DNA of 64,000 bases from a virus, in the IMG/VR virus record IMGVR_UViG_3300011114_000773, positions 32,001-96,000 of that record; one strand, written 5' to 3'. The translations under genes and the position numbers were made by a program. The notes below the pieces were generated by a model. It was not told where the DNA came from. It saw only the letters and a program-made list of their open reading frames with translations, and searched no databases. Each line of letters starts with the position of its first letter. The first letter of the stretch is position 1. Shown here piece by piece: positions 1,458-29,135 of this stretch.

Positions 1458-1602
1458 AATTATTAAAATGGACTTGGTGAGTATAAAAATGCTCTCCGAG
1501 CTATACAAGAATACGTTATGGCCAGCAGCGCTAGTACGAATACAATCATACTATTCGACGGGCCATCTAAACACGTATTCTACGACTCTGCCAAAAAAAA
1601 CT

Positions 1603-1631
1603 TTGACAAATCGCTAAACCCATGCTAGCAT
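1603..1631 (+). promoter_or_regulatory. Sigma70-type promoter upstream of the structured RNA
   Basis: TTGACA (1603-1608), 17-nt spacer, TAGCAT (1626-1631); predicted TSS about 1638. Confidence 0.7.
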
Positions 1632-1646
1632 AATTTCAGTAATATA

Positions 1647-1984
1647 TCTGGACATGGAAATAAGTGCCTCCCGCTTTCAGACGGGCGTTAACTAGCAGCT
1701 ATCACCTGAAAATGGTCGTGGCCCTTGGGCAAGGTCGAAGATACTACTGCGTGGTTAAAGCGTGTGATATGGGGAAACAAGCAACAGGTCACATAAGGGC
1801 ACATCAACCGTTGGTTGGGAATCCCTAGTCGAAAGACTAGGGGGATGGTCCGAAACTATTTTTAGGACGAGGCGGGTAACGTCACGTTGACAAAGGTAGA
1901 GCTAGACGCCGGGGCACGATAGACCCCTATGGTCCTGAATGGCTGAAGCTGCCCTATGCGCGTCTAACTCCGTCTATGTCCAGA
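1647..1984 (+). ncRNA. Putative large structured non-coding RNA (~340 nt), family unknown
   Basis: No ORF in the track; GC-richer than its flanks. Closing stem TCTGGACAT/ATGTCCAGA, several nested helices, CCCTAGTC-GAAA-GACTAGGG hairpin, upstream promoter. Confidence 0.65.
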
Positions 1985-2144
1985 ATAGTAATATTCAACA
2001 ACATAACACGGAAATGAAGACACCTCAAAAAAGTTTGGTTTGCAGGATGTTAAGAAAGCATGTCCTTTAAAACAGGCTTGCTTTCTTAATTTCCTAAAAA
2101 AGTATAGTCTGCGCTTCTTTTGTCTTTACATTATTATTCATTTT

Positions 2145-2753
2145 ATGATTCATCACGGTACTAACACCGAGGGTACTCTTATTAAGGTACAGGGGCTAGT
2201 TGGGTTGTGCGGCCTAGCTAGGTCAGGCAAGGACTTATTATGCTCGAAACTAATGGAGCGCGGGGAAGTTGTCCGAGTGGCTTTAGCTGACGAGCTTAAG
2301 AAAGACATGCGAGACTTCCTAACGCTTAAGTACGGTATCGACATTCTACACTGCTCTGCTGTGGAAAAGGAGGTCGTCCGCCCTCTTCTGGTAGCACATG
2401 GATGCGCTATGAGAGGATTAACTAATGGAGACTGCTGGATAAATAAAATCCACCAACAAGTTGTAGCTAACGCATTGCAGTCATTGGTTGTCGTCACCGA
2501 CATTCGGTTTCCAAACGAACTTGCGTGGCTTAGGAGATTGGGCGGCGCTCTAGTCCATATCCGAAGATATAATGTAGTGGAGGGTGAGCGGTGGTATCTT
2601 TCTCCTCCTAACGCAGACGAGGCAGAATACGACCCCCACTTAAGGGAGTCGGCTGATTTTAAACTTGAATGGCAAACATCAAACGATATAGGAGTAAAGT
2701 TAAATGCAGAAGTGGACCAAGTAGTCTCATACTTGAATGGACGACTTTACTAA
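2145..2753 (+). CDS. Deoxynucleoside monophosphate kinase
   Basis: P-loop GLARSGKD, ALADELK, DIRFPNE motifs typical of phage dNMP kinases; ATG at 2145 preferred to TTG at 2040. Confidence 0.85.
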   Translation: MIHHGTNTEGTLIKVQGLVGLCGLARSGKDLLCSKLMERGEVVRVALADELKKDMRDFLTLKYGIDILHCSAVEKEVVRPLLVAHGCAMRGLTNGDCWINKIHQQVVANALQSLVVVTDIRFPNELAWLRRLGGALVHIRRYNVVEGERWYLSPPNADEAEYDPHLRESADFKLEWQTSNDIGVKLNAEVDQVVSYLNGRLY

Positions 2754-3336
2754 AAAAAACGACAGTGAACTTATTTCTTCCGTCGTGAATAGTTCATGCT
2801 CGGACAGCTACCTTGAGCTTTGCCGAAGATACGAAAAGGTCTTTTACAAAGTATGCCAGAGGTATAGCTCTGTCTTTACCTCCGTAGGAATCCCAATAGC
2901 TGATATACTTGACGATAAAGATTCAATCATTTATTTTTGCGTAAAAAAGTTTGACCCGACTAGAGGCGCTAAATTTTCTACGTTTGTCGGAAACTACGCC
3001 AGATTTTTATGCTTGAAAAGTATTTTAAGTAAAAAGCATTGTTCTGACTTCAGCGATGATTCGATAAACGAACTTATTGAGAGTCGCCAGATTGCTCAAG
3101 AATATGAATCTTCCAATACTATTTTTGGAGCGTCTTTAGTCAACGAGGCTGTCGAAAAACTAGAGAATCCGATACATCGCAAAATTATTCACTTAAAGTA
3201 CTACGCACAAGCTGGCCCTGTTACATGGAAGACCATCGCTAATGATATGAAAATTAGCGTCCCGACCGTAATTGGAATACATGGTCGAGCTATTAGGAAT
3301 CTCAAAAGGAAAATAAAAACGCTAGAATTACAATGA
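2737..3336 (+). CDS. Phage RNA polymerase sigma factor (sigma70 family, regions 2 and 4)
   Basis: KFDPTRGAKFSTFV region-2 motif; C-terminal HTH TWKTIANDMKISVPTV...RAIRNLK. Confidence 0.85.
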   Translation: MDDFTKKNDSELISSVVNSSCSDSYLELCRRYEKVFYKVCQRYSSVFTSVGIPIADILDDKDSIIYFCVKKFDPTRGAKFSTFVGNYARFLCLKSILSKKHCSDFSDDSINELIESRQIAQEYESSNTIFGASLVNEAVEKLENPIHRKIIHLKYYAQAGPVTWKTIANDMKISVPTVIGIHGRAIRNLKRKIKTLELQ

Positions 3337-4433
3337 AAAACTTCTCTCTTCATCTACCAATAAACTCTACCAGTCTAGGTCAGACATCGACCTTAATTCT
3401 GCGGACACTCATCGAGAACCCGGAGTTACTAGCGAAAGTAGATGGCTTATTTAATATCGGACATGACTTAGACTTGTCCAGTCAGGACCAGTCTTCTGTG
3501 AAGTCGTTTAGCCCAGCCGTACAGCAATTGATGAATGACAGTTTATCTAAGTATAGCAGGAGCACCCCATGCTTCAAGTTGTGGCACTTGTTAGGTTCTC
3601 TTGAATCGTATAGCGCAAATCCGACACTTCTATCATTTTACGAGTTAGACGAGCCGACAAGCGCAGAGCTTACTATTGCTGGAAGTCAGAACACGTTATT
3701 TACGTCTCGATACACCTGCGATGTATTCGCTAGTCGAGGAGTCCAGACTAAATATGTTCCGCTCGCTTTTGACGACTTCAATTTCAAAGTCAAAAATACA
3801 AGGAGAATTCCTGATAGGATTACTTTTAACGTCGTAGGCAAATATGAGAAAAGGAAATCTCACGAAAAAGTAATCAAATCTTGGATTAAGAAGTTCGGAA
3901 ATGACCGTCGTTATTTCTTGCAGGCCGCTGTCTATAATCCTTTCTTCCCGAACCCGGCAGAGACAAATAACAGAGTTACGAATGAACTATTGGGCGGACG
4001 GTCTGTATTTAATGTGAATTTCTTCGGGCACATGCTACAGAACTCTCTATATAATGACTTTCTTAACTCGTCGGATATCGTGCTTGGACTGAGTGGAGGA
4101 GAAGGCTGGGGACTTCCTGAGTTCCAGTCTGTAGCGATGGGAAAACACGCGGTTATTTTGGACGCTCATGGATATAAAGGCTGGGCCAATGCCGAAAACT
4201 CGGTTCTTGTAAAGCCAAACGGTAAAACCCCAGCATACGACGGATTATTCTTCCGTCAGGGAGCGCCGTTTAATCAGGGCAGTATTTTTACATTCGATGA
4301 AGACGCTTTTATCTACGGATGCGAACAAGCTATAGAAAGAGTCAAGAGCAGCCCAGTTAACGCTTCTGGAATTAAATTGCAGCAAGAGTTCTCAAGACAA
4401 AAAATGGTAAATCAAATTATAGAAGCACTATGA
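3333..4433 (+). CDS. Glycosyltransferase, GT4-like (GT-B)
   Basis: VGKYEKRK and SGGEGWGLPEFQSVAMGK donor-binding motifs. Confidence 0.85.
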   Translation: MKNFSLHLPINSTSLGQTSTLILRTLIENPELLAKVDGLFNIGHDLDLSSQDQSSVKSFSPAVQQLMNDSLSKYSRSTPCFKLWHLLGSLESYSANPTLLSFYELDEPTSAELTIAGSQNTLFTSRYTCDVFASRGVQTKYVPLAFDDFNFKVKNTRRIPDRITFNVVGKYEKRKSHEKVIKSWIKKFGNDRRYFLQAAVYNPFFPNPAETNNRVTNELLGGRSVFNVNFFGHMLQNSLYNDFLNSSDIVLGLSGGEGWGLPEFQSVAMGKHAVILDAHGYKGWANAENSVLVKPNGKTPAYDGLFFRQGAPFNQGSIFTFDEDAFIYGCEQAIERVKSSPVNASGIKLQQEFSRQKMVNQIIEAL

Positions 4434-4696
4434 ACGAAAATCCTATCGTATTTACCTTGAAGCGAGAAGATTTAAATAAGGCGTCTTTGCCGATGGACTT
4501 AATAGTCGGAGACGTATCAGACCGCCCGCCAGAGTTTTTCATTACTCAAATCGAGAATACATCTCCAGAAATCGTGACTGAAGAAGAGGTAGGAGAAGGT
4601 AGAATAAAAATTACGATTAAATCAGAGAGATGTCTTAAGAAAGCTTTTGATAAATTTAACGAAGCACGAGCAAACAGCAAGAAACACAATCTATGA
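4430..4696 (+). CDS. Hypothetical protein
   Basis: ATGA-coupled on both sides within the operon. Confidence 0.6.
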   Translation: MNENPIVFTLKREDLNKASLPMDLIVGDVSDRPPEFFITQIENTSPEIVTEEEVGEGRIKITIKSERCLKKAFDKFNEARANSKKHNL

Positions 4697-5370
4697 ACCC
4701 AACGCTACAAATTAGATTATTCACGAACGACCAGTTCGTCCTAGACAAAGTCTTTTACGCGAACGCTTACAAGTTGGCGACATTACCGAAGGATTCTATT
4801 GTGTTCGACATCGGGGCACACATCGGGTTCTTCGCTACGAACTGCGCTGTTCGCGGTGCTGCTAGAATTTACTGCTTCGAGCCTAACGCAGAAAATTTTG
4901 AGTGTCTTCTTCGTAATACTTTATTTATTAGAGATGGGGTTACGGCGGTCAATTCTTCTGTATTATTTGAGTCTGGATTTCTAGCTTTTGAAAAGCCGAA
5001 GCTCTCTGAGGATAAGTTTTTTGATTTCTCTTCGGTAAATATTGCGGACGAAAGCTCTGGAGATAAAGAATTGTCTATATGTATGAGTTTAGACACCGCT
5101 CTACTTAACTACGGTGGACAAGAAGTTCATCTGCTAAAAATAAATCTTGGTGGCTCCTATGAGCCAGACGTGCTAATTAATAGCAAGCTTATCAGCAAAT
5201 GCAACGCCGTATGCGGGATGACCAAGACCGACGACACGGCATCTCTGGACAAACTGTTCGCGCACATGAAAGAACATGGCTTCACTAATTCAAGTCTGAT
5301 AGACACTGGCGAGGACAAGGAGTTCCTTTTCGTATTTACCAAAGACATCGCTAAATCTTATTTTCAATAA
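4693..5370 (+). CDS. FkbM-family SAM methyltransferase
   Basis: VFDIGAHIGFF, YCFEPN, LLKI motifs. Confidence 0.85.
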   Translation: MNPTLQIRLFTNDQFVLDKVFYANAYKLATLPKDSIVFDIGAHIGFFATNCAVRGAARIYCFEPNAENFECLLRNTLFIRDGVTAVNSSVLFESGFLAFEKPKLSEDKFFDFSSVNIADESSGDKELSICMSLDTALLNYGGQEVHLLKINLGGSYEPDVLINSKLISKCNAVCGMTKTDDTASLDKLFAHMKEHGFTNSSLIDTGEDKEFLFVFTKDIAKSYFQ

Positions 5371-5371
5371 T

Positions 5372-5704
5372 ATGCCGTATTATACTTATAAAAACCCCAA
5401 GACCTCTGAAACCAAGGATATCTATCAAAGTATGAGAGAAGACCATGTCTATTCCGAAGGGGGCCAAGCTTGGGTTAGGGTTTTTGAATCACCGCAAATG
5501 TCTGTTGACACTAACATAAATCCAGACTCTAAGGCTGATTTTATGCGCGCTACCCAAAAGAGAATGACAATGGGCGATATGTGGGATGTCAGCGCCGATT
5601 TGAGTGCGAAGCGGGCGGAAAAATACGGGTCAGACCCGGTTAAGGACACCGCTGTTGAAAAGTACAAAAAGAAGTGCAAGAAAAACAAACACCCGCTAGC
5701 TTAA
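5372..5704 (+). CDS. FmdB-like small protein (Cys-less zinc-ribbon-like N-terminus)
   Basis: MPYYTYK...RVFESP pattern resembles the FmdB family. Confidence 0.55.
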   Translation: MPYYTYKNPKTSETKDIYQSMREDHVYSEGGQAWVRVFESPQMSVDTNINPDSKADFMRATQKRMTMGDMWDVSADLSAKRAEKYGSDPVKDTAVEKYKKKCKKNKHPLA

Positions 5705-6421
5705 ATGAAGATAGGAATTCTAGCTGTCTCATACAATTGTGCTGGCGATATAGATAATGTTCTATCTCCGTTCAAGGGAGACTCATTCGTAATCTCGGCG
5801 TGCAATATCCAGTTCGATAAGTTCGATATCCCGCCAGACGAGGACACTCTGATAAAACTTTACGAAACTCCAGAAGTCCAGCATATCTCTACGTCTGTAT
5901 GTCCGCTACCAGAAGCGGAAGCTCGGAATCTGGCGTTGAAGTATCTGCTCTATAGGGATGTCGATTACGTATGGCTCGTTGACGGAGACGAGTTCTACAC
6001 AGATAAAGAGGTAAACGCAATTACTAAAATTTTATCAGAAACGAGTCACGGGCCGTATTTTTCCATCAATTTCAAGAACTATGTTTTCGATGGTAGGACT
6101 TGGATAAGTGGATTTTGTCCTCCTAGGATATTCAGTAACAGGATTCACGGTGGAATCTCGTCGTTTTATTGGGATAACGACGTATCTTATAATGACGGCA
6201 CGGATTACAAAAGGCTTCCTAACGCGAAAATCCCAGAGTCCGTAGCTAACGTCCGCCACATGACTTGGCTTCATACTAATGGAAAAGAGAAAGTCCGTTA
6301 TCAGTTGAAACATTTTGGAGAGTGCTCTTACTCGTGGAATAGTTCTCTTGAGCGATTAGAATTCAATGAGGCATATTACCTAAAGAACAAAGTAAAGAAG
6401 CCTGAATTAATATATGATTAG
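5705..6421 (+). CDS. Glycosyltransferase, GT2-like (GT-A)
   Basis: EAEARNLAL...DYVWLVDGDE DxD motif. Confidence 0.8.
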   Translation: MKIGILAVSYNCAGDIDNVLSPFKGDSFVISACNIQFDKFDIPPDEDTLIKLYETPEVQHISTSVCPLPEAEARNLALKYLLYRDVDYVWLVDGDEFYTDKEVNAITKILSETSHGPYFSINFKNYVFDGRTWISGFCPPRIFSNRIHGGISSFYWDNDVSYNDGTDYKRLPNAKIPESVANVRHMTWLHTNGKEKVRYQLKHFGECSYSWNSSLERLEFNEAYYLKNKVKKPELIYD

Positions 6422-7217
6422 CGTTTATACGACAGCCTTTAATATAACTAAAGGAAAATTTAACATAGAGTCCGCTCTCAAGAACTTTTCCCTAGTCGGA
6501 GACGAAATCGTCGTTGGTACAATAAAAAATGAAGACGATACGCTAGACGTGCTAAATAGTTTTAAAGACTCATATCCTATAAAGATAGTCCAGACCGACT
6601 ACGATACTAAAACGTTTGCTGTAGATGGGAAGCTGAAAGAAGCTGCCTTGCAAAAATGCTCTGGAGAGTTCTGTATTCAGCTAGACGCTGACGAAAGAGT
6701 CGGGAATCCTGACGCATGGAATGACTTTATCAGTGACGAAGAGCTTCTTCGCAAAGTACTGTCCGATGATGTCGATGCTTTAATGTTGCCAGTAGTTAAT
6801 ATGTATAGGGACATAAATTCTTATAAAGACATAAATAGTAAATGGTATATCCATAAAAAAGATTCAAAATCACGAGGCAGACTGCACCGTGGAGTAGTAT
6901 ATTTCGCAAGGCTAGAGGGCGAAAAATTCGATAAGGAGAAGAGCGACGGATGCGAACTTCTGTATAGTGATAGCTCACTAGTCTCAAGCGTAGCCTTCAA
7001 AAATGCAGAATCTATTGAACAACTCAATTCTGCCGATATTCCATTCGTCGTACATCTTGGATACCTAGATTTATCGCGCAGAGATTCTCTGAACAAGGAG
7101 TTCTGGAATGCTACTTGGGCATCTTATGGAGGAACCGCAGTAGAGGACAAAGTAGAAGGACTTCCGCAGGTCAACAGTCTCAGATATGCGAGTTTAGATT
7201 TCTCGAATTTAATATGA
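6414..7217 (+). CDS. Glycosyltransferase, GT2-like (GT-A)
   Basis: ISVYTTAFN, DEIVV, EDDT, QLDADE, HLGY motifs. Confidence 0.85.
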   Translation: MISVYTTAFNITKGKFNIESALKNFSLVGDEIVVGTIKNEDDTLDVLNSFKDSYPIKIVQTDYDTKTFAVDGKLKEAALQKCSGEFCIQLDADERVGNPDAWNDFISDEELLRKVLSDDVDALMLPVVNMYRDINSYKDINSKWYIHKKDSKSRGRLHRGVVYFARLEGEKFDKEKSDGCELLYSDSSLVSSVAFKNAESIEQLNSADIPFVVHLGYLDLSRRDSLNKEFWNATWASYGGTAVEDKVEGLPQVNSLRYASLDFSNLI

Positions 7218-8047
7218 AGTTTTTTTCTGGTTTTAACGCCGGTCAGTATGGAGACTTAGTAATGAATACCGTCGCAGCCAGAAGGCTAAAATGGATGTAT
7301 CCAGAATGTCGATTATCTTTAGGAATCTCTCAAAAATATTCTGGCGCTGAACCTCTGTTCGAGAAACACCCCTTTATAGACGAAACCCATATATGGGAAG
7401 GCTATGACAACTTTCCTACCGAGAATGACAGAAAATTAATAAAATCAAAAGCATTTTCTGGCATTTTTAATCCCATGCCGAAGCACGATTATTCCAATGG
7501 CCCTTGGTTCTCAAAAAGGCATCAAACTAGTGAGGTCTGTTTCATGCACGGGCTGGGTGATGTTCCAGCCGAGCAGTGCCACTTGAACAGATGGTTTTCT
7601 CTTCTTTCTGGATATGAAGACTATATCGCACTGGCCCCGTTCGCTGGATGGTATAATCAGTCTAATCTTAAGAAACTAACGATTGAAAAAGCTGATGAAG
7701 TATGCGCTCGCATACGAGGCATGGGATATAAAGTTTTTCAGACGGGTGGCCCGGACGAGCCTAGGTTGAGATACGCAGAAAAGCCAAATCTTTCTATTCT
7801 GGAGTCCGTACAAGTAGTATTGTCGACCAAAGTCCTAGTCCACACAGATACTTTTATGGGGTGGGCAGCATCGGCCTATGGACATAAACAGGTCGGACTA
7901 TATAGCGATGCGGAATATCAAATAGGAGAGCAAAATTTCGTTCATAATATACAGCCAATCAACAGAAATTTTATTCCAATCAACGCTCGTAACGTAAACG
8001 AAATCGACTGCGAACAAATAGTATCCGCCCTCAAATATCTATTATGA
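7214..8047 (+). CDS. Glycosyltransferase, GT9 (heptosyltransferase-like)
   Basis: GQYGDLVM, HPFIDE, IALAPFAG, TDTFMGWAASA; ATG at 7214 overlaps the upstream stop. Confidence 0.8.
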   Translation: MKFFSGFNAGQYGDLVMNTVAARRLKWMYPECRLSLGISQKYSGAEPLFEKHPFIDETHIWEGYDNFPTENDRKLIKSKAFSGIFNPMPKHDYSNGPWFSKRHQTSEVCFMHGLGDVPAEQCHLNRWFSLLSGYEDYIALAPFAGWYNQSNLKKLTIEKADEVCARIRGMGYKVFQTGGPDEPRLRYAEKPNLSILESVQVVLSTKVLVHTDTFMGWAASAYGHKQVGLYSDAEYQIGEQNFVHNIQPINRNFIPINARNVNEIDCEQIVSALKYLL

Positions 8048-8934
8048 GAATAACTTGCCTAGGTGCCCGGACAGAACTGTCTCAGATTGAGAGAATCGAG
8101 TATGGATTACAGTCGCTCGGTCATATCACAGAACCGACAGATAGCCCTGATGTAATTTTTTGCAATGATACTGGACTATGGGATAAAGCTATAGAGATGA
8201 AGCAAAGGTCGGGCGCGTTTCTGATTTTAAACATTTTGGACCTTCCATATTTTCTTCCAAATTTCTTGGAGATTGTCGGAAAGCTCAAAGGTCAATGTGC
8301 GCACGCAGATGCTATAACCTGTATAAGCGAAACTACGAGGTTTTCTATTAAAAGATATCTTGGTATTGACGTATCGAAAGTCAGAGTCATTGGAAATCCC
8401 ATCAAAGATGTCTGCAATCTAGGATTTGTTAGACACATCCCGTTTCTCTATTGCGGAAGAGCTAATGATAGCATGAAGCGGGTCAGACTGGTTAAGGAGA
8501 CTATGGAGCTAATGAGTATCCATACTAGGGAACTAGTGGTATGCGGCCCGGAAAACCCCGGATTCGGAAACTACATAGGCCTTATTAGAGACGAACAGTT
8601 GCAGAGTATTATGAACTCTTGTCAGATTTTGATTTATCCATCGTGCTTCGATGGACTTGGTCTTCCTCCGATAGAGTTCTGTATTACTGGCGGTGTTCCT
8701 ATTCTTTGCAACGATTCGCCCACGTCTTTAGAGTTCTTTCCGAGTCAAGTCCTCTGCTCTCCTAATGCGGCCAGTATAGCCGAAAAAGTAGTCCATGTCT
8801 ATAATAATTATAGCGATTATCAGAAGCTACTACGTAAAACTAAAGACTCTTTCATTGACCGATTCAACCGAATGCAAGTAGCTAAAAATATTTTGGATAT
8901 CTGTAAGAATGCTCCTGTCACGAATAAAGTCTGA
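8044..8934 (+). CDS. Glycosyltransferase, GT4-like
   Basis: CISETT, YCGRANDSMKR, YPSCFDGLGLPPIE motifs. Confidence 0.85.
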   Translation: MRITCLGARTELSQIERIEYGLQSLGHITEPTDSPDVIFCNDTGLWDKAIEMKQRSGAFLILNILDLPYFLPNFLEIVGKLKGQCAHADAITCISETTRFSIKRYLGIDVSKVRVIGNPIKDVCNLGFVRHIPFLYCGRANDSMKRVRLVKETMELMSIHTRELVVCGPENPGFGNYIGLIRDEQLQSIMNSCQILIYPSCFDGLGLPPIEFCITGGVPILCNDSPTSLEFFPSQVLCSPNAASIAEKVVHVYNNYSDYQKLLRKTKDSFIDRFNRMQVAKNILDICKNAPVTNKV

Positions 8935-8939
8935 TACTG

Positions 8940-9770
8940 GTGAGCCGAATACTAATTACAGGAGCTAACGGATTCCTAGGGAGAAATCTCTGCAAGGATT
9001 TTTCTGATGCTGGTTTTGAAGTCTTTGCTTGGCTCAGGAGTAATGACATCAAAGATATCGGGACATTTCGCCCAGAGTATGTAGTTCACTGCGCTGGAGA
9101 AGTACATAATGAGCAGAAGATGATTGAGTCCAATATTATCTTGACGGAAAATGTGCTTAAGCAAGTATCTGGATACCACTATCGACCTTCGCTCAAAAGA
9201 TTTATTTATTTAGGGTCTTCGTCTGAATATGGTAGGATGACTGTGCCCAGCAGCGAAACCGATATACCTAATCCAACGTCGATGTATGAAGCCACCAAAA
9301 CCTCTGGCGCGATGATAGCTCAGGCCTACGGAAAGAAGTGCAACTTTAAAGTATCTATAGTTAGGCCGTATTCTATATTCGGCGAATTCGAGTCTCCCGA
9401 TAGATTTATTCCCACAATATATCGTTCAGCTAAAAATGGAGAGGTGGTAAAAATTTACGACGGAGCACACGACTTTCTATATGTAAAAGATTTCGTAGAA
9501 GCAGTCCGAGCGATAATTACCGCCAATGAACCTAGCGATATAGTGAATATAGGAAGCGGAATCTGTACGTCAAACGGACTGCTAGTTCAGACTTTTGAGG
9601 CTGCGTTCGGAAAATCTATCTCAAAACAGCTCGTTCAGAGCAGAATTAGAGACTATGACTCTGATTATTGGTGCGCTAATATCTCATACTTGAAAAGGAC
9701 GTATGGCTGGTCGCCCAGATTTAGCCTTGAGCAAGGATTAAAAGACTATATCAGAATTTGCGGAACATGA
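8940..9770 (+). CDS. NAD-dependent NDP-sugar epimerase/dehydratase/reductase (extended SDR)
   Basis: ITGANGFLG, GSSSEYG, YEATK, DFLYVKD motifs. Confidence 0.9.
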   Translation: MSRILITGANGFLGRNLCKDFSDAGFEVFAWLRSNDIKDIGTFRPEYVVHCAGEVHNEQKMIESNIILTENVLKQVSGYHYRPSLKRFIYLGSSSEYGRMTVPSSETDIPNPTSMYEATKTSGAMIAQAYGKKCNFKVSIVRPYSIFGEFESPDRFIPTIYRSAKNGEVVKIYDGAHDFLYVKDFVEAVRAIITANEPSDIVNIGSGICTSNGLLVQTFEAAFGKSISKQLVQSRIRDYDSDYWCANISYLKRTYGWSPRFSLEQGLKDYIRICGT

Positions 9771-10393
9771 AAGACTACTCACTCCATCAAAGGATAATTG
9801 ACATCAGCGTAAAGCATAAGCTCTCGCATTTATCATCATGCCTAACAGCGGTTGATATTATAAACGAGATATACGCTCAAAAAAAGATGGACGAAGTATT
9901 CGTTCTCTCTAGCGGTCATGCTGCGTTAGCTTTATATGTTGTTATCGAAAAGTATCAAGGACTAAACGCCGAGGCTCTCCTTGAAAAGCATGGAGTCCAC
10001 CCCGGATTTGATAAGGCGTCTGGAATCTACTGCTCTACTGGCAGTTTGGGATTAGGAATTACCGTATCCGTTGGATATGCGTTGTCTGATAGAAGCAAGA
10101 ATGTTTATTGCCTAATTAGCGATGGCGAGTCTTTTGAAGGAAGCGTATGGGAGAGCCTAAGCTTTATAGACAATAATAAGTTAGAGAATATGAAGATTTA
10201 CGCCAATATAAATGGATATTCTGCTTATGATGCAGTAGATTGCGACAAGTTAGTTAGAAAGCTGAGAGCATTTTTACCGACAGTGAACGTCCGTCTTACT
10301 GATGTCAGAGAATATCCGACGCTAGCTGGAATCGGCGGACATTATCTCGTCCTTAAAGAACATCCACTTACAGATGATATTGGAGTATTATGA
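9767..10393 (+). CDS. Transketolase-like ThDP enzyme, N-terminal (PP-binding) subunit
   Basis: SHLSSCL, LSSGHA, STGSLGLG, ThDP motif SDGESFEGSVWE...N. Confidence 0.9.
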   Translation: MKDYSLHQRIIDISVKHKLSHLSSCLTAVDIINEIYAQKKMDEVFVLSSGHAALALYVVIEKYQGLNAEALLEKHGVHPGFDKASGIYCSTGSLGLGITVSVGYALSDRSKNVYCLISDGESFEGSVWESLSFIDNNKLENMKIYANINGYSAYDAVDCDKLVRKLRAFLPTVNVRLTDVREYPTLAGIGGHYLVLKEHPLTDDIGVL

Positions 10394-10866
10394 GAAGAGT
10401 ATTCGCAGAACTTACAGAGAATTTAATGAGTCAAAGTCACAACGTCTTTTTGTTGACTGGGGACTTAGGATATGGTATTTGGGATAGCGCCAGACTGAAC
10501 CATCCAGATAGAGCTATTAATGTTGGCGCGGCTGAACAATTACTAGTCGGTGCTGGTGTCGGTATCGCTCTAACCGGGAAAATAGCTATTTGCTATTCGA
10601 TAACTCCATTTTTATTATATAGACCTTTTGAGATAATTAGAAACTATATAGACCACGAAAAAATCCCAGTTAAGCTAGTAGGCTCAGGGCGCGGAAAAGA
10701 TTATTCGCATGATGGCTTTTCTCACTGGGCAGAAGATGATGAGGCTATTATGAGCAACTTTAAAAATATCTCAGTATGGCACCCTAAAACTACCGACGAG
10801 CTACGGCAAAACTTTTTGTACTATATGTCCTCCGTGAACCCTTGCTATATTAATCTGAAACGCTGA
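10390..10866 (+). CDS. Transketolase-like ThDP enzyme, pyrimidine-binding subunit (no C-terminal domain)
   Basis: TGDLG, INVGAAEQ, GFSHW, PCYI motifs; only 158 aa. Confidence 0.9.
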   Translation: MRRVFAELTENLMSQSHNVFLLTGDLGYGIWDSARLNHPDRAINVGAAEQLLVGAGVGIALTGKIAICYSITPFLLYRPFEIIRNYIDHEKIPVKLVGSGRGKDYSHDGFSHWAEDDEAIMSNFKNISVWHPKTTDELRQNFLYYMSSVNPCYINLKR

Positions 10867-10867
10867 T

Positions 10868-11551
10868 ATGAAATTTCTTGTTTTTTCGTTCTACGACTCT
10901 GGCAGTCACGAAGGTTGCCCATTTAGTGAGTTAGCTAAATTGACCCAGCCTTCAAAGGAATTATATTCTCTAAGACACGGCTATGATTTTTATTGCAAAA
11001 CAGATAATTTCGCCGCAGATAGGGCTATCGGATGGGCTAAGATAGACATCATCAACGACAAGCTCCCGAATTATGACTGGATAATTTACATTGAGTGTGA
11101 TGCAATGATAATGAATCAAACTATCAGACTTGAGAATCTAATAGATAATAACTATGACGTAATTATTTCTGACAGCAAATACAAGCATCATTTTCAAGGA
11201 GTAAACTCTGGAGTCATGCTCATCAAGTCCTCTAGCTGGAGTAGAGAGTTCTTTAAAAGGCTGTGGCTTAAAGAGCACTACTTCAGAGGTAACTGGTGGG
11301 AACAGGGCGCTCTAATCGAGGAAATAAGAGATAGCCCAGAAGTACGAAACCACGTCAAGTTAGTCAATAACAGATTCTTTAATAGCTACTACCACTGGGG
11401 CACGCCGGATGAGAACTTTGTCGTCGGCGACTTTATTTGCCATTCGGCAGGTACAAGTAACGAATCGAGAGAAGCCCTTTTTACAGAGCTTCAGAGAAAG
11501 CAGATAGTAATTCCAGAAGATACCCGTATAACTACACCGTTCTTCCCATAA
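10868..11551 (+). CDS. Glycosyltransferase, GT34 (GMA12/MNN10-like)
   Basis: RHGYDF, WAKI, WIIYIECDA, NSGVML, WEQGAL, GDFICH motifs. Confidence 0.8.
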   Translation: MKFLVFSFYDSGSHEGCPFSELAKLTQPSKELYSLRHGYDFYCKTDNFAADRAIGWAKIDIINDKLPNYDWIIYIECDAMIMNQTIRLENLIDNNYDVIISDSKYKHHFQGVNSGVMLIKSSSWSREFFKRLWLKEHYFRGNWWEQGALIEEIRDSPEVRNHVKLVNNRFFNSYYHWGTPDENFVVGDFICHSAGTSNESREALFTELQRKQIVIPEDTRITTPFFP

Positions 11552-11552
11552 T

Positions 11553-12107
11553 ATGAACATATATGAAATAGGAGTTGGAAACCCGTCAATCAGCAGGACT
11601 CTAGGCAACTATACAGATAGTCTGTATCTTTTCGAGGCGAATCCATTAATTTATGCTGAGTTAGCTAAGGCTTTTTCTAATAAGAAGAATTGCCGCATCT
11701 TTAATTTATGTATATGCGGGTACGACGGTCAAATAGAGTTCTGCTCGAATGGCGACTCTTCCTACGTGCATGGAGTAGCATCTCCAGCAGAAATGACCGG
11801 TAGCGAAGAATATCTTAAATCATTTAAGAAGATAACCGTGGACTGTAAAACTATAAAAAGCTTTGAGGCTATGGCTCCGATAGATATCCTACTATTGGAC
11901 ATGGAAGGCTCGGAATATCAAGTTCTTCTTGATATGGTGAGCAGGCCGCGAGAAATAACAATAGAGATGCAGAATCACAATAAAACATATATAAACCCCC
12001 ATTTTGATGATATACTATCTTGGATGGAAAAGAACGAGTACATCTTGAAAAGCAAAAATAGTAACGAAGAGGATTGGACTTTTTCAAGTCATAACATACG
12101 TAAATGA
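11553..12107 (+). CDS. FkbM-family methyltransferase
   Basis: EIGVG, LFEANP, IDILLLDMEGSE motifs. Confidence 0.8.
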   Translation: MNIYEIGVGNPSISRTLGNYTDSLYLFEANPLIYAELAKAFSNKKNCRIFNLCICGYDGQIEFCSNGDSSYVHGVASPAEMTGSEEYLKSFKKITVDCKTIKSFEAMAPIDILLLDMEGSEYQVLLDMVSRPREITIEMQNHNKTYINPHFDDILSWMEKNEYILKSKNSNEEDWTFSSHNIRK

Positions 12108-12730
12108 AAACACAAACACATAAAGATGTCCCCGGATGGTTCGACTTCGAGAATATCTACAATTTCGCCGTAAACAGCTCGAAGAGCGGAGATACGCTCG
12201 TAGAGGTAGGTTCTTTTCTCGGAAAGAGCGCCTGCTATATGATGGAGAAGATAGGCGAGGGCGGCAAAGAGCTTAAGTTTTACTGCGTCGATTTATTTAC
12301 AATAACTCCAGACGAAGGGGACGGAGCGATGCCTTGGGGAGAGAATGCAAAAACATGGCAGGCCGCGAACGGAGGAGTTGACGCACTGTACCTGTCTTTC
12401 TTGAAGAATATATCGGGCAACACCCCATCAAATCTCACTGGTCACTTTCGAGAGGATTCCTCCAGTTCAGCGGCGCATTTTGAAGACAACTCTGTACATT
12501 TTTGTTTTATAGATGCAAGCCATTTATACGAAAATGTCAAGAGGGACTTGGTCGCTTGGTATCCCAAGATAAAACCCGGTGGCTTCTTGGCTGGACACGA
12601 TTTTGGTAATGGGACAAACGGAGTAGGAATAGCTGTGAAAGAATTTTGCTCCGAGAGAAGGCTTGAGTTTAGAAATGACTATTCATTTATCTTTCAGAAG
12701 CCATTCTCAGACGCTATAGCTGTCAATTGA
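12104..12730 (+). CDS. Class I SAM methyltransferase (Methyltransf_24-like)
   Basis: VEVGSFLGKS, FIDASHLYE, KPGGFLAGHD motifs. Confidence 0.88.
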   Translation: MKTQTHKDVPGWFDFENIYNFAVNSSKSGDTLVEVGSFLGKSACYMMEKIGEGGKELKFYCVDLFTITPDEGDGAMPWGENAKTWQAANGGVDALYLSFLKNISGNTPSNLTGHFREDSSSSAAHFEDNSVHFCFIDASHLYENVKRDLVAWYPKIKPGGFLAGHDFGNGTNGVGIAVKEFCSERRLEFRNDYSFIFQKPFSDAIAVN

Positions 12731-12733
12731 TAG

Positions 12734-13801
12734 ATGAAAACCGTCTTTATAACAGGTGTGACTGGTCAAGATGGATATTACCTAGCGGAGTATCTAACCA
12801 AATACTTCCCAGAGCATAAGGTCATAGGATTCACAAGAAGCCGCCTAACTAGTAGCCAGCAGGGGCTTCTACTGGACCAATTCGGCGAGAAATTCACAGT
12901 TCAACATCTCGATATAAGAGACGGTTTGGCTATGAAGTATTTTTTTAAGCACTATCGTCCAGACTATTTTGTTAATTTCGCAGCAAGTACTAACCCATCA
13001 GCTAGTTGGAGGAATGCCTCAGAAGTCTTTGAGTGTAACGTAGATTCTGTCGCTAGAATACTAGAGCGCATTCACTTGTCTCGCCCATCGTGCAGATTCT
13101 TCTCTGCGGGTTCGAGTTTAGAGTTGGGAGACGCTATATCTAATGAAATTAAAACGCCATACGCACTTTCAAAATCTACAGCGGGAAAACTTGTCTCTAT
13201 GTTCAGAGATGAGTATGGGATTTTTGCCACGCACGGAATTCTTTTTAATCATACGAGTCCTAGGTCAAAAGAGAACTTCTCTGTTTGTAAGATAACGAAG
13301 GGCGCGGCAAGAATATTCTTATCCATGAAGACCTTGTCTGAATTCGAGCCGATAGTATTGGACGGAGACATTTATAATTATATAGACTGGTCTGATAGCA
13401 GGGAAATCGTCCGTGGAGTGTGGGACGCTCTCCAACAAAAAAAGCCGCTAGATTCTCCTCATTTTTGCAGTGGAATTAGGAGACAGCTATCAACTATTAT
13501 TTTTAGCGCGTTCTATTCACTTGGAATCGTCGGTGAATGGCGAGCGGATGGATTGTATCTCCCCGATTCGCTGGTTAAGGGGATGTCGGTTAAGTCTAAC
13601 TGCCTAGTAAGGATAAATCCCAGCAACCAGCATACACTAGCCGATAACCCCTATGGGGATGTCAAAAAGATGTCTGACATCGGATGGAAAATCCAGATTC
13701 CATTTGACACAACCATAAGGAATATGGTAGAGTACTACCTCACTGAAAACAAGAAAGCCATCAATATACGTCCCGATAATAAAGAAGTTCCTATCGGATG
13801 A
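12734..13801 (+). CDS. gmd: GDP-mannose 4,6-dehydratase-like
   Basis: FITGVTGQDGYYLAE, PYALSK, GILFNHTSPR, KIT motifs. Confidence 0.82.
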   Translation: MKTVFITGVTGQDGYYLAEYLTKYFPEHKVIGFTRSRLTSSQQGLLLDQFGEKFTVQHLDIRDGLAMKYFFKHYRPDYFVNFAASTNPSASWRNASEVFECNVDSVARILERIHLSRPSCRFFSAGSSLELGDAISNEIKTPYALSKSTAGKLVSMFRDEYGIFATHGILFNHTSPRSKENFSVCKITKGAARIFLSMKTLSEFEPIVLDGDIYNYIDWSDSREIVRGVWDALQQKKPLDSPHFCSGIRRQLSTIIFSAFYSLGIVGEWRADGLYLPDSLVKGMSVKSNCLVRINPSNQHTLADNPYGDVKKMSDIGWKIQIPFDTTIRNMVEYYLTENKKAINIRPDNKEVPIG

Positions 13802-22296: not shown

Positions 22297-24842
22297 TTGA
22301 TTTTGACAGTAACTTCTCGGAGATTCCATATAGCCCTACTGGCGTCAGATTGCCGGAAATCTCCATTTCAGAAAAGCACCTAACGCTCGTCGGCCTAAAG
22401 ATGGGGGATTCTAATTACGATTTCCTTCGTGCTATATGCTTGACTGGTTTCAAATCTCTTAACCTGAAAAAGACAGACGCAAAATATGCGATTTATACAG
22501 ACAGGGTAAAATACGAACTCAGTATTTTCAAAGACTTAGGCTTTGTTGACTATGTCCTCATGGTTTGGGACGTGATTAATTACTGCAAAGAGAACTCTAT
22601 TCCCGTGGGTCCGGGAAGAGGAAGCGCGTGCGGCTCTCTAGTTCTCTATTTAATCGGAGTAACGAAAATTGACCCTATTAGATATGACTTATTCTTTGAG
22701 AGATTCGTTTCAAAGACAAGGGCAAAAAAGACAGTCGTCGATGGCGTGACATATCTCGATGGTTCATTGATGTGCGACGTTGACATGGATATCTGTTATT
22801 ATCGGCGTCAAGAGGTATTAGCCTATATAGACCAGAGATACTCTGGAAAGACCGCTAAAATCTTGACCTTTAATACTCTAAGTAGCAAAATCTTAGTTAA
22901 GGAAGTCGGAAAAACTGTCGGTAGCAAGGCAGACTCGGACATGACCAAAGTGACCGCGATGATTCCAAAGACTTTCGGAATTGTGGCGGATTTGCCGCAG
23001 GCATATAAAGAGGTCGCGGAATTCAAGACGTGGTGCGACGAAAATCCATTGATATTTCAGATTAGTCAAAAACTTCACGGCCTGATTAAGAACAAAGGCG
23101 TTCATCCATCTGGTGTACTAGTCTCTTACGAAAAACTCGAAGACTCATGCCCCACGGAATTGACTTCAGACAAGGCGGAAGTCTCGTCTGTCGATATGTC
23201 ATGGGTTTCCGTCGCTAACGTCAAGCTGGACGTTCTGGGACTTAGGAGCGTATCTGTGGTGAATGACGTTTGTAAATCCGTCGGGATAGAGATGAAGGAC
23301 ATCGACCTAAATGACTCGTTGATATATCTTAGCCTTCAAGATTTGAAAACTCCTCACGGACTTTTCCAAATTGAAGCGGACTTGGCATTTGAAGTGCTTA
23401 AGAAAGTCATGCCTCGAAGTCTTGAACAACTAAGCGACGTGCTAGCACTTGCTAGACCCGGTGCTATGGCGCACATTGACCAATATGCCGCCTATTCCAA
23501 TAACGGAGTCTATGATGCGGAAAATCCATTCTTTGACGATATTCTAAAGCCTACAGGTGGAATTTGTCTTTATCAAGAGCAGTTGATGAGGATGGTAAAT
23601 AAAATTGGATTCAGCCTTGAGGATTCAGAGCAAGTCCGCCGATGCGTCGGCAAGAAAAAGGTAGAGGAGATGGCCCTTTGGGAAGAGAAGATTAGCAACA
23701 AGATTACTGAAAAAGGTCTGGACCCTAAGATTGGTAAAACGCTTTGGGATATTGCTAAGGCCTCTGCTAATTACCAGTTCTGCAAAAGCCATAGCGTAGC
23801 TTATGCGGCGCTTTCTGCGCTAACTATTTATCTTAAGTTCAAATATCCCCAGCAGTTCTTTCTGTCTCTTCTTAAAATGACGAAGAATGAACCCGACCCA
23901 GTTCAAGAAATTTACAAGATTCAAAAGGAGATGTCTTCGTTTGGAATGAGACTTCTTCGTCCCGACCTTCTTAAGTCGGAAATGCAGTTCAGTATAGTAG
24001 GAAAAGACATCAGATTCGGACTCATGTCTGTAAAAGGAATCTCTGAAGGCTCTTTAGACTCACTGCTTAAGTTCCGCACGGAATGCGGCGGGAAGCAGAT
24101 GGACAAATTTGAACTATATGAGTGCGCGAATAAGGCTAAGATTAATGTCGGCGTGCTGAGTTCTCTAATTCAAGCCGGTTGCTTTGAAACTAACGGAACT
24201 AGTCGCAGCTATGCCGTGTATCAGGCGCAGTTGTGGGGGCAGCTTACCGATAGAGAGAAAGTCATCGCAAAAACTATCGGCGAAAAGCACGAATTCAATT
24301 TAGCGAAGACTCTCGGAGCCATGAAGACAATGAAGACTGCCACCGGCAAAGAGGTTCTTAAAGAAACTCGCGTCGCTACGATTACGAAGGACTGTCGTAA
24401 ATACGCAGATATTTTTGAAATAAACAAGAAGAACGAACCGATAGCTAACTGGTGGTACGAGACTAAACTACTAGGCTATTCTTTTTCTAGTTCGCTAAAG
24501 AGTATTTATAGCGAGCAGCTAGAAAACTTTATGACCGTAAAAGAGGCGAAGTCCGCTCGTCAGCGGAGCACAGTTTATTTTGGTGGACTTATTTTTGAGA
24601 AAAGCATTAACGGCCAATCTAAAAAAGGCTCGAAATACATCAAAATGTTTCTCCGGGATGAGACGGAGCAAATCGTAGTAATGGTATTCAATGAGAGAGC
24701 AGAAGCTCTCGTCTCTGTTCCTGCTATTGACGATTTAGTACTGATAAAAGGAACAATACAGGATGGAGGGGTAGTTTTCGCCGACATCGTCGCTCCTCAG
24801 TCAGCTAAGATATACACAAAACTCTGTCAGCTAAAAGGCTAA
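22293..24842 (+). CDS. dnaE: DNA polymerase III alpha catalytic subunit (no PHP domain)
   Basis: GPGRGSACGS, DVDMD, HPSGV, KLDVLGL, FQIE, LYQEQ, FCKSHS, IRFGL and a C-terminal OB fold; ATG at 22293 overlaps the upstream stop. Confidence 0.95.
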   Translation: MIDFDSNFSEIPYSPTGVRLPEISISEKHLTLVGLKMGDSNYDFLRAICLTGFKSLNLKKTDAKYAIYTDRVKYELSIFKDLGFVDYVLMVWDVINYCKENSIPVGPGRGSACGSLVLYLIGVTKIDPIRYDLFFERFVSKTRAKKTVVDGVTYLDGSLMCDVDMDICYYRRQEVLAYIDQRYSGKTAKILTFNTLSSKILVKEVGKTVGSKADSDMTKVTAMIPKTFGIVADLPQAYKEVAEFKTWCDENPLIFQISQKLHGLIKNKGVHPSGVLVSYEKLEDSCPTELTSDKAEVSSVDMSWVSVANVKLDVLGLRSVSVVNDVCKSVGIEMKDIDLNDSLIYLSLQDLKTPHGLFQIEADLAFEVLKKVMPRSLEQLSDVLALARPGAMAHIDQYAAYSNNGVYDAENPFFDDILKPTGGICLYQEQLMRMVNKIGFSLEDSEQVRRCVGKKKVEEMALWEEKISNKITEKGLDPKIGKTLWDIAKASANYQFCKSHSVAYAALSALTIYLKFKYPQQFFLSLLKMTKNEPDPVQEIYKIQKEMSSFGMRLLRPDLLKSEMQFSIVGKDIRFGLMSVKGISEGSLDSLLKFRTECGGKQMDKFELYECANKAKINVGVLSSLIQAGCFETNGTSRSYAVYQAQLWGQLTDREKVIAKTIGEKHEFNLAKTLGAMKTMKTATGKEVLKETRVATITKDCRKYADIFEINKKNEPIANWWYETKLLGYSFSSSLKSIYSEQLENFMTVKEAKSARQRSTVYFGGLIFEKSINGQSKKGSKYIKMFLRDETEQIVVMVFNERAEALVSVPAIDDLVLIKGTIQDGGVVFADIVAPQSAKIYTKLCQLKG

Positions 24843-27800
24843 TATAGGCCTTTGTTATACTCTGTCCAGGTTATACCTTTGGGTATAAGCGTTCCCACGT
24901 TCGGTTGCGGGTATCTCCAGACAGGAATAACTGACTCTGAAAACCGTGAGTCTCCAGAAGCGGCTGTGAACTCGGCGTCATAATATTGTTTTTGGGCGCT
25001 AACTTCATATAATTTGCTGATAATCGGATTAACTGTGTTATCTGCTAGAGACTGCCCTTGACATGCGCTATAAAGCATGGTCGTCTCTGGCAGCATTTTG
25101 CCGTCTGGAAGCGTCACTCCGTCATACGATGGCATCACTTTTGCGTTAAGATATGCGTAATCGCTAATCGCGCCGACAATGTATTTATTATAGTTCTTTT
25201 CGTTAGTGTTTACCTCTGCGAAAGACTCGTCTGTCAAATATTTTACGTTTTCTCCAGTTACTTCTAGCTGCCTAGAAGGGGCGTATTGTAACTCGCAATT
25301 CGCAGGAATGGATACCTGATATCCGTGCTCAATCATAGTATTGGACAGGAATTGAGGATATAGAGAGTTCTCCTTGACGACATCCCCTACCGAGATATCT
25401 TTCAGGAACAGCCCCTCGGAGAGTACTGGGCGTTCCTTGATATTCTCATATTTTAGAACTCCAGTTATTAAGCAGTTTCCTGTCGGCATCACCAAATCTT
25501 CAACATCGTATGGAGGATTGCCGTATCCTGACCAATTTATGTTCGACACGATAACTTCTATTTTACACTGCTGTCTCCAGTAGTATATCTCTCCGGTATG
25601 AGTCGCTTGCCAGCCTGTTACAGAAACTCCCGTTCCCCAATCCGAACCGGACGGAATTTTGTATAAAATTCCAGTCTCCATTGTCCCTGTATATGAGAAT
25701 ATCTGGTTTTCATAGTTGAACGGTCCCGAAGTCTCTCGGGCAAATCCAGAACGAAAATATCCAGTTTCATCCAAAAATGAAGAAGCCGTTTTCTTTCCAG
25801 AGTATCCTCCGGGAAAATATTCCAAGGCGGCAAAGTGGAATCCGAATCCAGTAGGCTTCATGTCCGCTATAATTATCCGGTTGTCTTTGGCTGGTTCTCT
25901 TTTATGGCCAGCACTGAACATGCTGTCCCAATGGTAATGCCCATATCCATATCGGATAGAGTCAACAGTCTTGTCCCCACTGTAGAACCCCATCCAACTG
26001 TCCCCTACTAGGCCACTCGGTCCCGTAGGATGCCGAGAACCATTTAGCTGCTCATCGGCAGAGTAGTTATCGGTTATTCCGCTAAAATTTCCGACTCTCT
26101 TTAAGTACAATGGGTCAGAGCCAGCATATCCATATCCGCGTTCTGGATTAGACTGGTTTTCTTCGTATAGATTACGAGAGATTGAAAATGCAGAATACAC
26201 GCTCTCTGCGTCAAACGAAGAAGTCTCCAATCTGTATCCCGGCATCACGTAAGAACCCGTAATAGGAATTGTATATCCGGTATATCGAGAAAACAAGCCT
26301 ACTGGATTCTTAGTAGATGTCGCTGCATAATCTGGACCATACCACCCATATCCAACTATATGAGTATGGCCGACTATGAAAGCGCCGGTATCTCTTAGTC
26401 CGAAGTCAGAAGCGACAACCGCGTTCGTGCCCGAATATTTTCCTATTTCGTCAGACAGAAATCCCTGTATGTAGTTAGGAGGACTATCATATATAAAAGG
26501 ATTAGAACCCGAGTCGGCCATGACAAAGACATTAGAGTATATCTGATTAATGGGCTGCGAGAAGTTTTCATCTACGGCATGACTCGGCGTAGAAGAATTA
26601 GCTGTATCGAACAATATCGAATTAGGATTGACTGGATAGTTATAAGTATTTAATCCTCCACCAGCATCATAAGCCTGACGTTTATAGAATTCTCTTTTGG
26701 CATATTGTCTTATCGTCAGATTATATGTAACCTTATGAGGAAATCCTATTTCTTTAGGGAATCCCTTTCCGCTATATTCTTCGATAAGGTCTGCCTTTCC
26801 AAATTTTGTCAGGAATACATTATTACCCTTATTCTCGAAAGAATCAAGACCCTCCGTGTCTGATTTATAAATCTCCCCTCCAAACATCTGTTCTGCTGCT
26901 GGATACAAGAACCTCTTCTTAGCAGTGGCAAATGGTCCTCTAAAGTAGCGCGGAAATGAGTTTTCTCTCTTTTGTGTCTTTATCACGGGATACCAACCGG
27001 AGGACAGAAGACCAATGGAGTGCGGAGTTTTGGCAAATCCGTCTTCCGGTCCGATAAACGGAAATACTGTATTGCCAGCTATTGATGAAGACAGCCCACT
27101 GTCAAATCCGCTATATAGGTATTCTCCAGTGCCGTCATAGGCATACAGCAGGCTTATCGGAATCTCGCCATATAGCTCATGCGCCCATCCCACAAGCATT
27201 CTATCTTCTATTTGTGGCGACCCGATTATAGCTCCAGAAGACGATAGACTTCCATACCCGTCCAGAGCAGCATTACCCCAAACATAATCCGGTATTTCGG
27301 AGTAGCCTTTTGCTATTAGATAGTTTCCTAACTGCGAAGAATTTACGGTAGCGAACGGAATAGCTCCACCCGAAAATAAAAATCCAGAGTGGATATACCC
27401 ATTATTTGATATCCCGTATTCCGATAGAGAAGCCTTTTCCATTCCATTCCCCATGCCCAGACAAAGGCTCTCTATAATCCCAGAATAATCTTCTGAGCGG
27501 ATAATCCCGGTTGATGGGATATTATATCCGAACACTACCTCTGGTTGTATAGGTTCGTCTGGTTGATAGAAATTTTGATTTTCAAAAGATTCTGAAGCGC
27601 CGCTGGAAATTCCCATGAAGGTCGTTCTATTCCCTAAGTATCCGAATTCTGTTGCGGAAATTCCAAAGCGTAATCTTAATCCAGCATACCGGCTAGCAGT
27701 TTCGCTCTGGAAGTCCTCCTCCACGACTATATATGGATAATCACATTTTGTACTACGCTGCGGCGGACCAGCAATTCCGCTATTGCTATTGTCCAAATCA

Positions 27801-29116: not shown

Positions 29117-29135
29117 TATCTATTATAGTGTTTGG

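Follow-up and report, generated by a model that had tools for sequence, protein, structure and literature searches.

The early region of phage T7 begins with one or more strong host-type promoters, several hundred non-coding bases and a long imperfect hairpin before the first early gene, and the early transcript is cleaved at an RNase III site ahead of gene 0.3. We know of no description of this leader as an intricately folded, selectively conserved RNA. The put RNA of HK022 and the EAR RNA of Bacillus lie at the head of long operons, act in cis in processive antitermination and are ∼70–120 nt in length; EAR is located in a polysaccharide-synthesis operon. Larger structured noncoding RNAs of phages and prophages include ROOL (659 nt) and GOLLD (>800 nt), the function of which is unknown; both assemble into homo-oligomeric cages made of RNA only and are often found near tRNA islands, and the expression of GOLLD increases during phage lysis (PMC12286853).

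Here, we describe a strongly conserved, promoter-driven non-coding element of ∼330 nt from an uncultured phage. It shares with ROOL and GOLLD that it appears to be a phage-encoded structured RNA and was found by comparative analysis of environmental sequence, but the covariance models of these families do not match it even at E values of up to 10, it is half their size or less and its contig carries no tRNA. ROOL and GOLLD are also widespread, whereas the element is confined to one phage clade. The layout of promoter, non-coding stretch and hairpin before a gene is that of the T7 early leader; there is, however, no sequence likeness, boxA is absent at the element and an RNase III cut at the hairpin here (2044–2095) is a guess. 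As with put and EAR, the folded RNA would be promoter-proximal, and the gene block behind it is rich in sugar-nucleotide and glycosyltransferase genes, but at ∼330 nt it is much longer, has no Rfam match and has no identifiable downstream terminators to override.

Phages are increasingly found to carry many large folded RNAs the job of which is unknown, and a well bounded new family whose promoter is defined and whose genomic setting is simple is a tractable case for learning what such RNAs do. The present element is compact, is under very strong selection and is found from river to sea, and its position at the head of a block with a sigma factor and a DNA-modification or sugar-modification cluster suggests that it may bear on the timing of the early programme. 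Its value is limited by its restriction to one uncultured clade and by a structure that is backed by two lineages only.

Genomic context and promoter

The source record is an IMG/VR virus of 108,297 bases (∼60% complete), of which bases 32001–96000, a stretch of 64,000 nt, form the window analysed here. The phage is tailed, uncultured and water-dwelling, with genes for a DnaE-type polymerase, DnaB, primase, UvsX and ribonucleotide reductase, and has no cultured relative closer than ∼32% polymerase identity. The element sits in a gap of 530–640 bases at the switch from leftward to rightward gene blocks (Table 1). Beyond the sigma factor the rightward block continues with glycosyltransferases, an FkbM methyltransferase and nucleotide-sugar enzymes, followed by replication genes. 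The stretch 3333–13801 holds a run of glycosyltransferases, the FkbM methyltransferase, two NAD-dependent epimerase/GDP-mannose dehydratase proteins and a transketolase-like protein; together these genes resemble a pathway for sugar nucleotides, which perhaps serves to glycosylate DNA or the surface.

An earlier note on this DNA had reported a TTGACA-17-TAGCAT promoter ahead of the element, and it is indeed present at 1603–1631. This site, P1603, scores 10/12 and has an extended −10 (TG preceding the hexamer) in the window. Both hexamers are the same in the related metagenome contig L003, in which the spacer, the flanks and the bases past the −10 have diverged; the 5′ segment of the predicted transcript (1638–1656) has diverged in both L003 and a further relative, X8. 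P1603 is the sole + strand site scoring at least 10/12 from the strand switch to window position 10940, and weaker promoter-like sites are present closer to the dNMP kinase gene. On the − strand of the left arm (contig positions 584–29840) there are at least seven TTGACA-17-TAnnnT sites directed leftward, an arrangement that resembles a series of early promoters of the host type. The consensus −35, the 17-base spacer, the A-tract and these similar sites in the leftward arm indicate that the host σ70 polymerase most probably makes the RNA early.

No canonical terminator (a stem with a U-run) follows the element in the window or in the L003 lineage. Compared with a bacterial-type small-RNA gene, the element has a promoter of its own and lacks an intrinsic terminator of its own directly 3′, although the latter is a weak test because canonical terminators occur at chance level throughout the region. 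Since no terminator is seen and P1603 is the sole strong host-type + strand promoter before the block that encodes the sigma factor, the rightward early transcript probably begins with this RNA.

The element is represented in an RNA library. The earlier note had proposed a search for a transcript, and a freshwater-sediment metatranscriptome yielded one contig of 220 nt that lies entirely inside 1724–1937; this contig is short, its depth is low and it may stem from carried-over DNA. The absence of metatranscriptome cover outside 1724–1937 was not counted as evidence.

Table 1. Positions of the promoter, the RNA element, its predicted parts and the neighbouring genes in the window.
Feature	Position	Strand	Remarks
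Leftward genes bordering the gap: RNR beta, 168-aa ORF, 140-aa ORF	140-aa ORF ends at 1508	−	
Promoter	1593–1631	+	A-tract 1593–1600; −35 TTGACA 1603–1608; 17-nt spacer; TG; −10 TAGCAT 1626–1631
Predicted transcription start (A1638) and variable 5′ segment	1638–1656	+	Start from the spacing to the −10
Conserved RNA core	1657–1980	+	324 nt; 91% identical to L003
Domain I, predicted multi-helix junction	1664–1802	+	Closed by GUGCCU/GGGCAC 1664–1669/1797–1802; RNAalifold consensus
Domain I, predicted hairpin	1719–1723/1733–1737	+	Four substitutions in L003, every pair kept, one fully compensatory
Domain I, predicted hairpin	1762–1794	+	Purine-rich loop, which is invariant
GAAA-tetraloop hairpin, predicted	1823–1842	+	8 bp; window fold and RNAalifold consensus
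Predicted hairpin GGAUGGU-CCGAA-ACUAUUU	1843–1861	+	Consensus; invariant, so that the comparison neither supports nor refutes it
Predicted hairpin with hypervariable loop	1866–1888	+	Loop 1870–1884; stem GACG/CGUU kept in L003, and in X8 via C1868U
Domain II, predicted long irregular stem with three-way tip	1889–1980	+	Includes UAGACGC/GCGUCUA 1903–1909/1960–1966
Non-conserved linker	1981–2008	+	Length-variable, 28 to ∼80 nt across lineages
Ultra-conserved block before dNMP kinase	2009–2144	+	∼137 bases, reaching to the kinase start codon; 129/141 aligned columns identical, above the RNA core
Imperfect hairpin	2044–2095	+	∼20 bp; z −4.4; no U-run after it
dNMP kinase	2145–2753	+	First gene of the rightward block; ATG at 2145
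Sigma-70-family factor	2737–3336	+	Second gene of the rightward block, after dNMP kinase

Conservation of the core

Alignment of four close homologues of the dNMP kinase and a scan of the metagenome collection led to a single close locus, L003, whose kinase is 79% identical to that of the window; the close kinases P0003–P0005 are 75–79% identical to it. The detailed comparison is one of two lineages, the window and L003. The third codon positions of the neighbouring genes are saturated (51% identical in the kinase, 41% in the sigma factor and 49% in the glycosyltransferase), so that the core, with the identity given in Table 1, is under strong purifying selection. Two blocks are invariant between the lineages: 57 nt at 1754–1810 and the stretch 1917–1960. 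Substitutions in the core show a ratio of transitions to transversions of 22:7, whereas codon positions 1 and 2 in the neighbouring genes have 125:101 (P = 0.045); this comparison is independent of any structure.

The borders of this conservation are sharp. Contigs from lake and marine samples are alike from 1657 onwards and their likeness ends at 1980. Upstream of the promoter the window and L003 are unalignable, with a different upstream gene in L003, and past 1980 the linker is variable in length and unrelated in sequence; the element is thus a bounded module. It is present in river, lake, sediment and marine-plankton metagenomes. It occurs in 20 sequencing runs; for 13 runs beyond those compared, the small shares were left out of the analysis. 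A one-base deletion at 1688 is common to L003, X8 and another relative, X12.

Searches for known families and further copies

At the gathering score, Rfam 15, against which the earlier note had proposed a search, had no match anywhere in the window. With the threshold relaxed to E values of up to 10 over the surroundings of the two copies (801 and 611 bases), the matches outside the core were noise (miRNA and snoRNA models and a Thr leader), and within it there was a 12-bit partial match on the tetraloop hairpin. The unmatched families include tmRNA, RNase P RNA, 6S, SRP RNA, group I and II introns, GOLLD and ROOL, as well as HEARO, OLE, raiA, riboswitches and EAR. ARAGORN detected neither a tRNA nor a tmRNA, whether in the window or over the entire contig. 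The earlier note, too, had found no consensus elements of tmRNA, RNase P or group I/II introns. A group I intron was considered and rejected: the element is placed between divergent genes behind its own promoter, and the intron models are unmatched. A retron-type or DRT-type ncRNA was likewise rejected, as no RVT_1 domain was found in the 108-kb contig (∼60% complete), while the control genomes were positive. The contig of this large phage carries zero tRNA and tmRNA genes over its 108 kb.

Scans of IMG/VR with the three flanking proteins, the kinase alignment, the inverted-repeat pattern, the two invariant RNA blocks and the downstream block returned no further copy, and the INPHARED phages gave no DNA match. 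In 185,579 prokaryote species genomes one invariant 20-mer was unmatched; the other had three exact matches (in Sphingorhabdus, Acidovorax and an Armatimonadetes MAG), which were judged to be chance because they fall on a stop codon followed by an M-A-E-A-A gene start or within a gene, and the rest of the element is absent. The covariance model R1, run over all loci, the whole contig and one related viral record, found only the two known copies. Loci with dNMP kinases of 35–43% identity have no sequence match to the element. Within the contig, no antisense target was found, nor any partner protein, other target or catalytic motif. As judged from these searches, the family is absent from Rfam 15 and from every collection searched, and so far it is known only from one uncultured clade of tailed phages that extends from fresh water to the sea.

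Folded structure

The transcript is predicted to form two multi-helix domains linked by three hairpins (Table 1). The evidence for RNA structure is moderate, and we consider it likely that the element works as a folded RNA of the + strand. Compared with shuffled sequences, the element in the window folds with a z-score of −3.8 on the + strand (0/100 as good) and −3.2 on the − strand, but the L003 copy folds no better than shuffles (z −1.1 on either strand); the folding z-score was dropped as general evidence because the window result was not replicated. The consensus of the two sequences has 105 pairs, of which three carry compensatory changes, 13 have changed on one side with pairing retained and none is broken, and a folding energy of −96 kcal/mol on the + strand versus −71 kcal/mol on the − strand; the − strand alignment likewise folds without broken pairs. 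The check by covariation that the earlier note had suggested thus turned up pair-keeping changes, but the covariation measure was matched by 57 of 500 shuffles and is statistically non-significant because only two lineages are compared.

When the structure is taken from the window only, the L003 substitutions break 12 pairs of the + strand fold, against 17.7 ± 2.4 for random placement (P ≃ 0.014); the same test on the − strand gives P = 0.26. For pairs with a probability of at least 0.9, three are kept and none broken on the + strand, and one is kept and three are broken on the − strand. The non-circular tests modestly favour the + strand. An excess of transitions in the stems (14:0) was rejected as circular, since it vanishes with a structure that was not fitted to L003.

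Three hairpins (1719–1737, 1823–1842 and 1903–1909/1960–1966) are individually convincing on comparative grounds: the changes in them preserve pairing on the + strand and not on the − strand. In the GAAA hairpin C1825U and A1827G give G–U pairs on the + strand and would be A–C mismatches on the − strand. Domain II has the compensatory pair G1908A and C1961U (G–C to A–U) together with the wobble-compatible changes A1894G and C1970U. The loop 1870–1884 is rewritten from lineage to lineage.

The complementary segments listed in the earlier note were all found in the window at their coordinates, and comparison with L003 separates them. The GAAA-tetraloop hairpin is retained through two wobble changes, UAGACGC/GCGUCUA through the compensatory change from G–C to A–U and AGACGG/CCGUCU through a change from G–C to G–U. 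GCCCUU/AAGGGC is complementary in the window and loses one pair in L003; the local hairpin 1719–1723/1733–1737, in which four changes leave all pairs intact, explains the L003 changes better. CAACC/GGUUG is also present in the window, with one pair lost in L003. The 9 bp closing stem did not hold, as four of its nine pairs are lost in register in L003, and the CCCGC/GCGGG pseudoknot was rejected with four of five pairs lost. UGUGAU/GUCACA is invariant and thus uninformative; the segments of the candidate pseudoknot GCAGCU/AGCUGC are invariant between the window and L003. In the window, the variable 5′ segment (1638–1656) pairs with 1973–1984 as a stem of 9–12 bp that is not retained in register in L003. 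The 3′ strand 1968–1984 has three rival pairing partners, and the overall architecture given here is provisional.

Linker and downstream block

In X8 and X12 the linker is replaced by 77–80 unrelated letters and likeness returns at 2009–2012, while L003 has 49 additional bases and diverged flanks. The extra bases between the core and the downstream block in L003 (1195–1262) form an AU-rich hairpin (z −2.5), which is not a canonical terminator. In the downstream block, 17-nt direct repeats at 2027–2043 and 2096–2112 (AAAAAAGTTTGGTTTGC and AAAAAAGTATAGTCTGC) bracket the imperfect hairpin and are found nowhere else in the contig; a reading of this 17-mer as a recurrent phage promoter was rejected since it has only these two sites. 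The substitution A2053G keeps a G–U pair on the + strand only, which argues that the hairpin 2044–2095 is read as + strand RNA. Our guess is that the hairpin serves as a site of processing or stabilisation, at which the RNA is separated from the mRNA.

Possible functions of the element

The earlier note had proposed a phage ncRNA that has a promoter of its own and is possibly of a new class. Support for this proposal comes from conservation well above the neutral level, the conserved hexamers, the lack of a surviving ORF, the lack of an Rfam match and the metatranscriptome contig. Our preferred reading, to which we would assign a probability of about 0.5, is that 1638 to ∼1985 is the gene for a structured phage RNA of a new family that is made early by the host polymerase and acts as a discrete RNA. 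The host σ70 RNA polymerase would start at the conserved promoter where the leftward and rightward genes diverge, and the transcript would fold into two multi-helix domains and three joining hairpins. We infer its ends, timing, stability, processing and action in trans: it would accumulate early in infection as a discrete and stable molecule and would act as RNA, most likely through the binding of a host or phage protein, and its release from the rightward transcript may occur by cleavage at the hairpin 2044–2095, as RNase III cuts the T7 early transcript. That the RNA is instead a free-standing new class, such as a ribozyme, an RNA-only assembly like those of ROOL and GOLLD or a decoy for a host factor that aids the handover to the phage sigma factor, seems rather unlikely.

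With no terminator in sight and P1603 the sole strong promoter, it would be equally natural for the RNA to be co-transcribed with the rightward operon and to serve as its cis-acting leader, on a transcript that runs through the dNMP kinase, sigma, glycosylation and replication genes. The 5′ fold could then target the transcript that carries it or the polymerase that makes it, by processive antitermination for instance, or as a sensor or stabiliser. We regard such a leader, the main rival of our preferred reading, as possible but not probable. It fits the absence of any other + strand site of at least 10/12 before window position 10940 and of any canonical terminator on the way from the RNA to the first gene, and, as the second gene of the block is a phage sigma factor, the host polymerase must transcribe the block first. 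The conserved hairpin 2044–2095, read as + strand RNA, and a long operon rich in polysaccharide-type genes, as in the EAR setting, point the same way. The unconserved linker of 28 to ∼80 nt, however, argues against a tight switch; at ∼330 nt the element is several times the size of put or EAR and matches no Rfam leader, riboswitch or EAR; no boxA-like sequence (TGCTCTTTAACAA, within three mismatches) is found in 1600–2150; and the weaker promoter-like sites lie closer to the gene. The metatranscriptome also recovered the core only and not the better conserved downstream block, which is a weak point. Overall, the promoter arrangement and the lack of a terminator speak for a leader, and the bounded conservation, the unconserved variable linker and the recovery of the core only from the RNA library favour a self-contained module, as in our preferred reading of a discrete RNA.

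Strongly conserved non-coding DNA at a strand switch, at a local minimum of the cumulative GC skew and with a thermodynamic fold signal that is unreplicated in L003, could be an origin of replication, a region for a primer transcript or a control region densely bound by proteins. However, the skew merely tracks gene orientation, and no iterons, AT-rich unwinding stretch or DnaA-box cluster are found nearby; G–U pairs are kept on one strand only, the conserved promoter fires into the element and the element is found in an RNA library. We consider a DNA-level element unlikely. A MITE-like insert, the alternative raised in the earlier note, would account for the terminal inverted repeats (TCTGGACAT/ATGTCCAGA) and an 8 bp target-site duplication, both of which exist in the window. 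The flanking copies of AGTAATAT are where the note had placed them, at 1638–1645 and 1987–1994, but as a direct repeat they are unconserved in L003 (AGTAAAGG and CAGAAATG), and the inverted repeat has decayed there too (four of nine pairs lost). The contig has only one copy of the element, searches of the viral and prokaryote collections with the inverted-repeat pattern and three invariant blocks gave no true match, and purifying selection extends along the full length of the element. The search for empty-site alleles that the note had suggested ended with all of the relatives examined carrying the element at the same site, and a MITE was rejected as very improbable. We give next to no credence to a small protein, for which a 54-aa ORF on the + strand (1664–1828) and a 39-aa ORF on the − strand (1688–1807) are open in the window, the latter also in L003. 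The + strand ORF is frameshifted by the deletion at 1688 in L003, X8 and X12, has five stops in L003 and has no Pfam or PHROGs match. The − strand ORF has a TTG start, spans just one third of the conserved stretch and shows seven non-synonymous versus two synonymous changes.

Other features of the window

Near-matches to the DnaA box TTATCCACA (at most one mismatch) number 24 in the whole window, against 13.8 ± 3.5 expected, a count that no shuffle reached; they are scattered, with no cluster at the element. On the − strand, two neighbouring giant ORFs of 1,425 and 1,683 residues at 24839–34187 are without any Pfam or PHROGs match, and a tape measure protein of 3,181 residues is encoded at 50486–60031, with the minor-tail/tape-measure domain PF10145 at its N-terminus.
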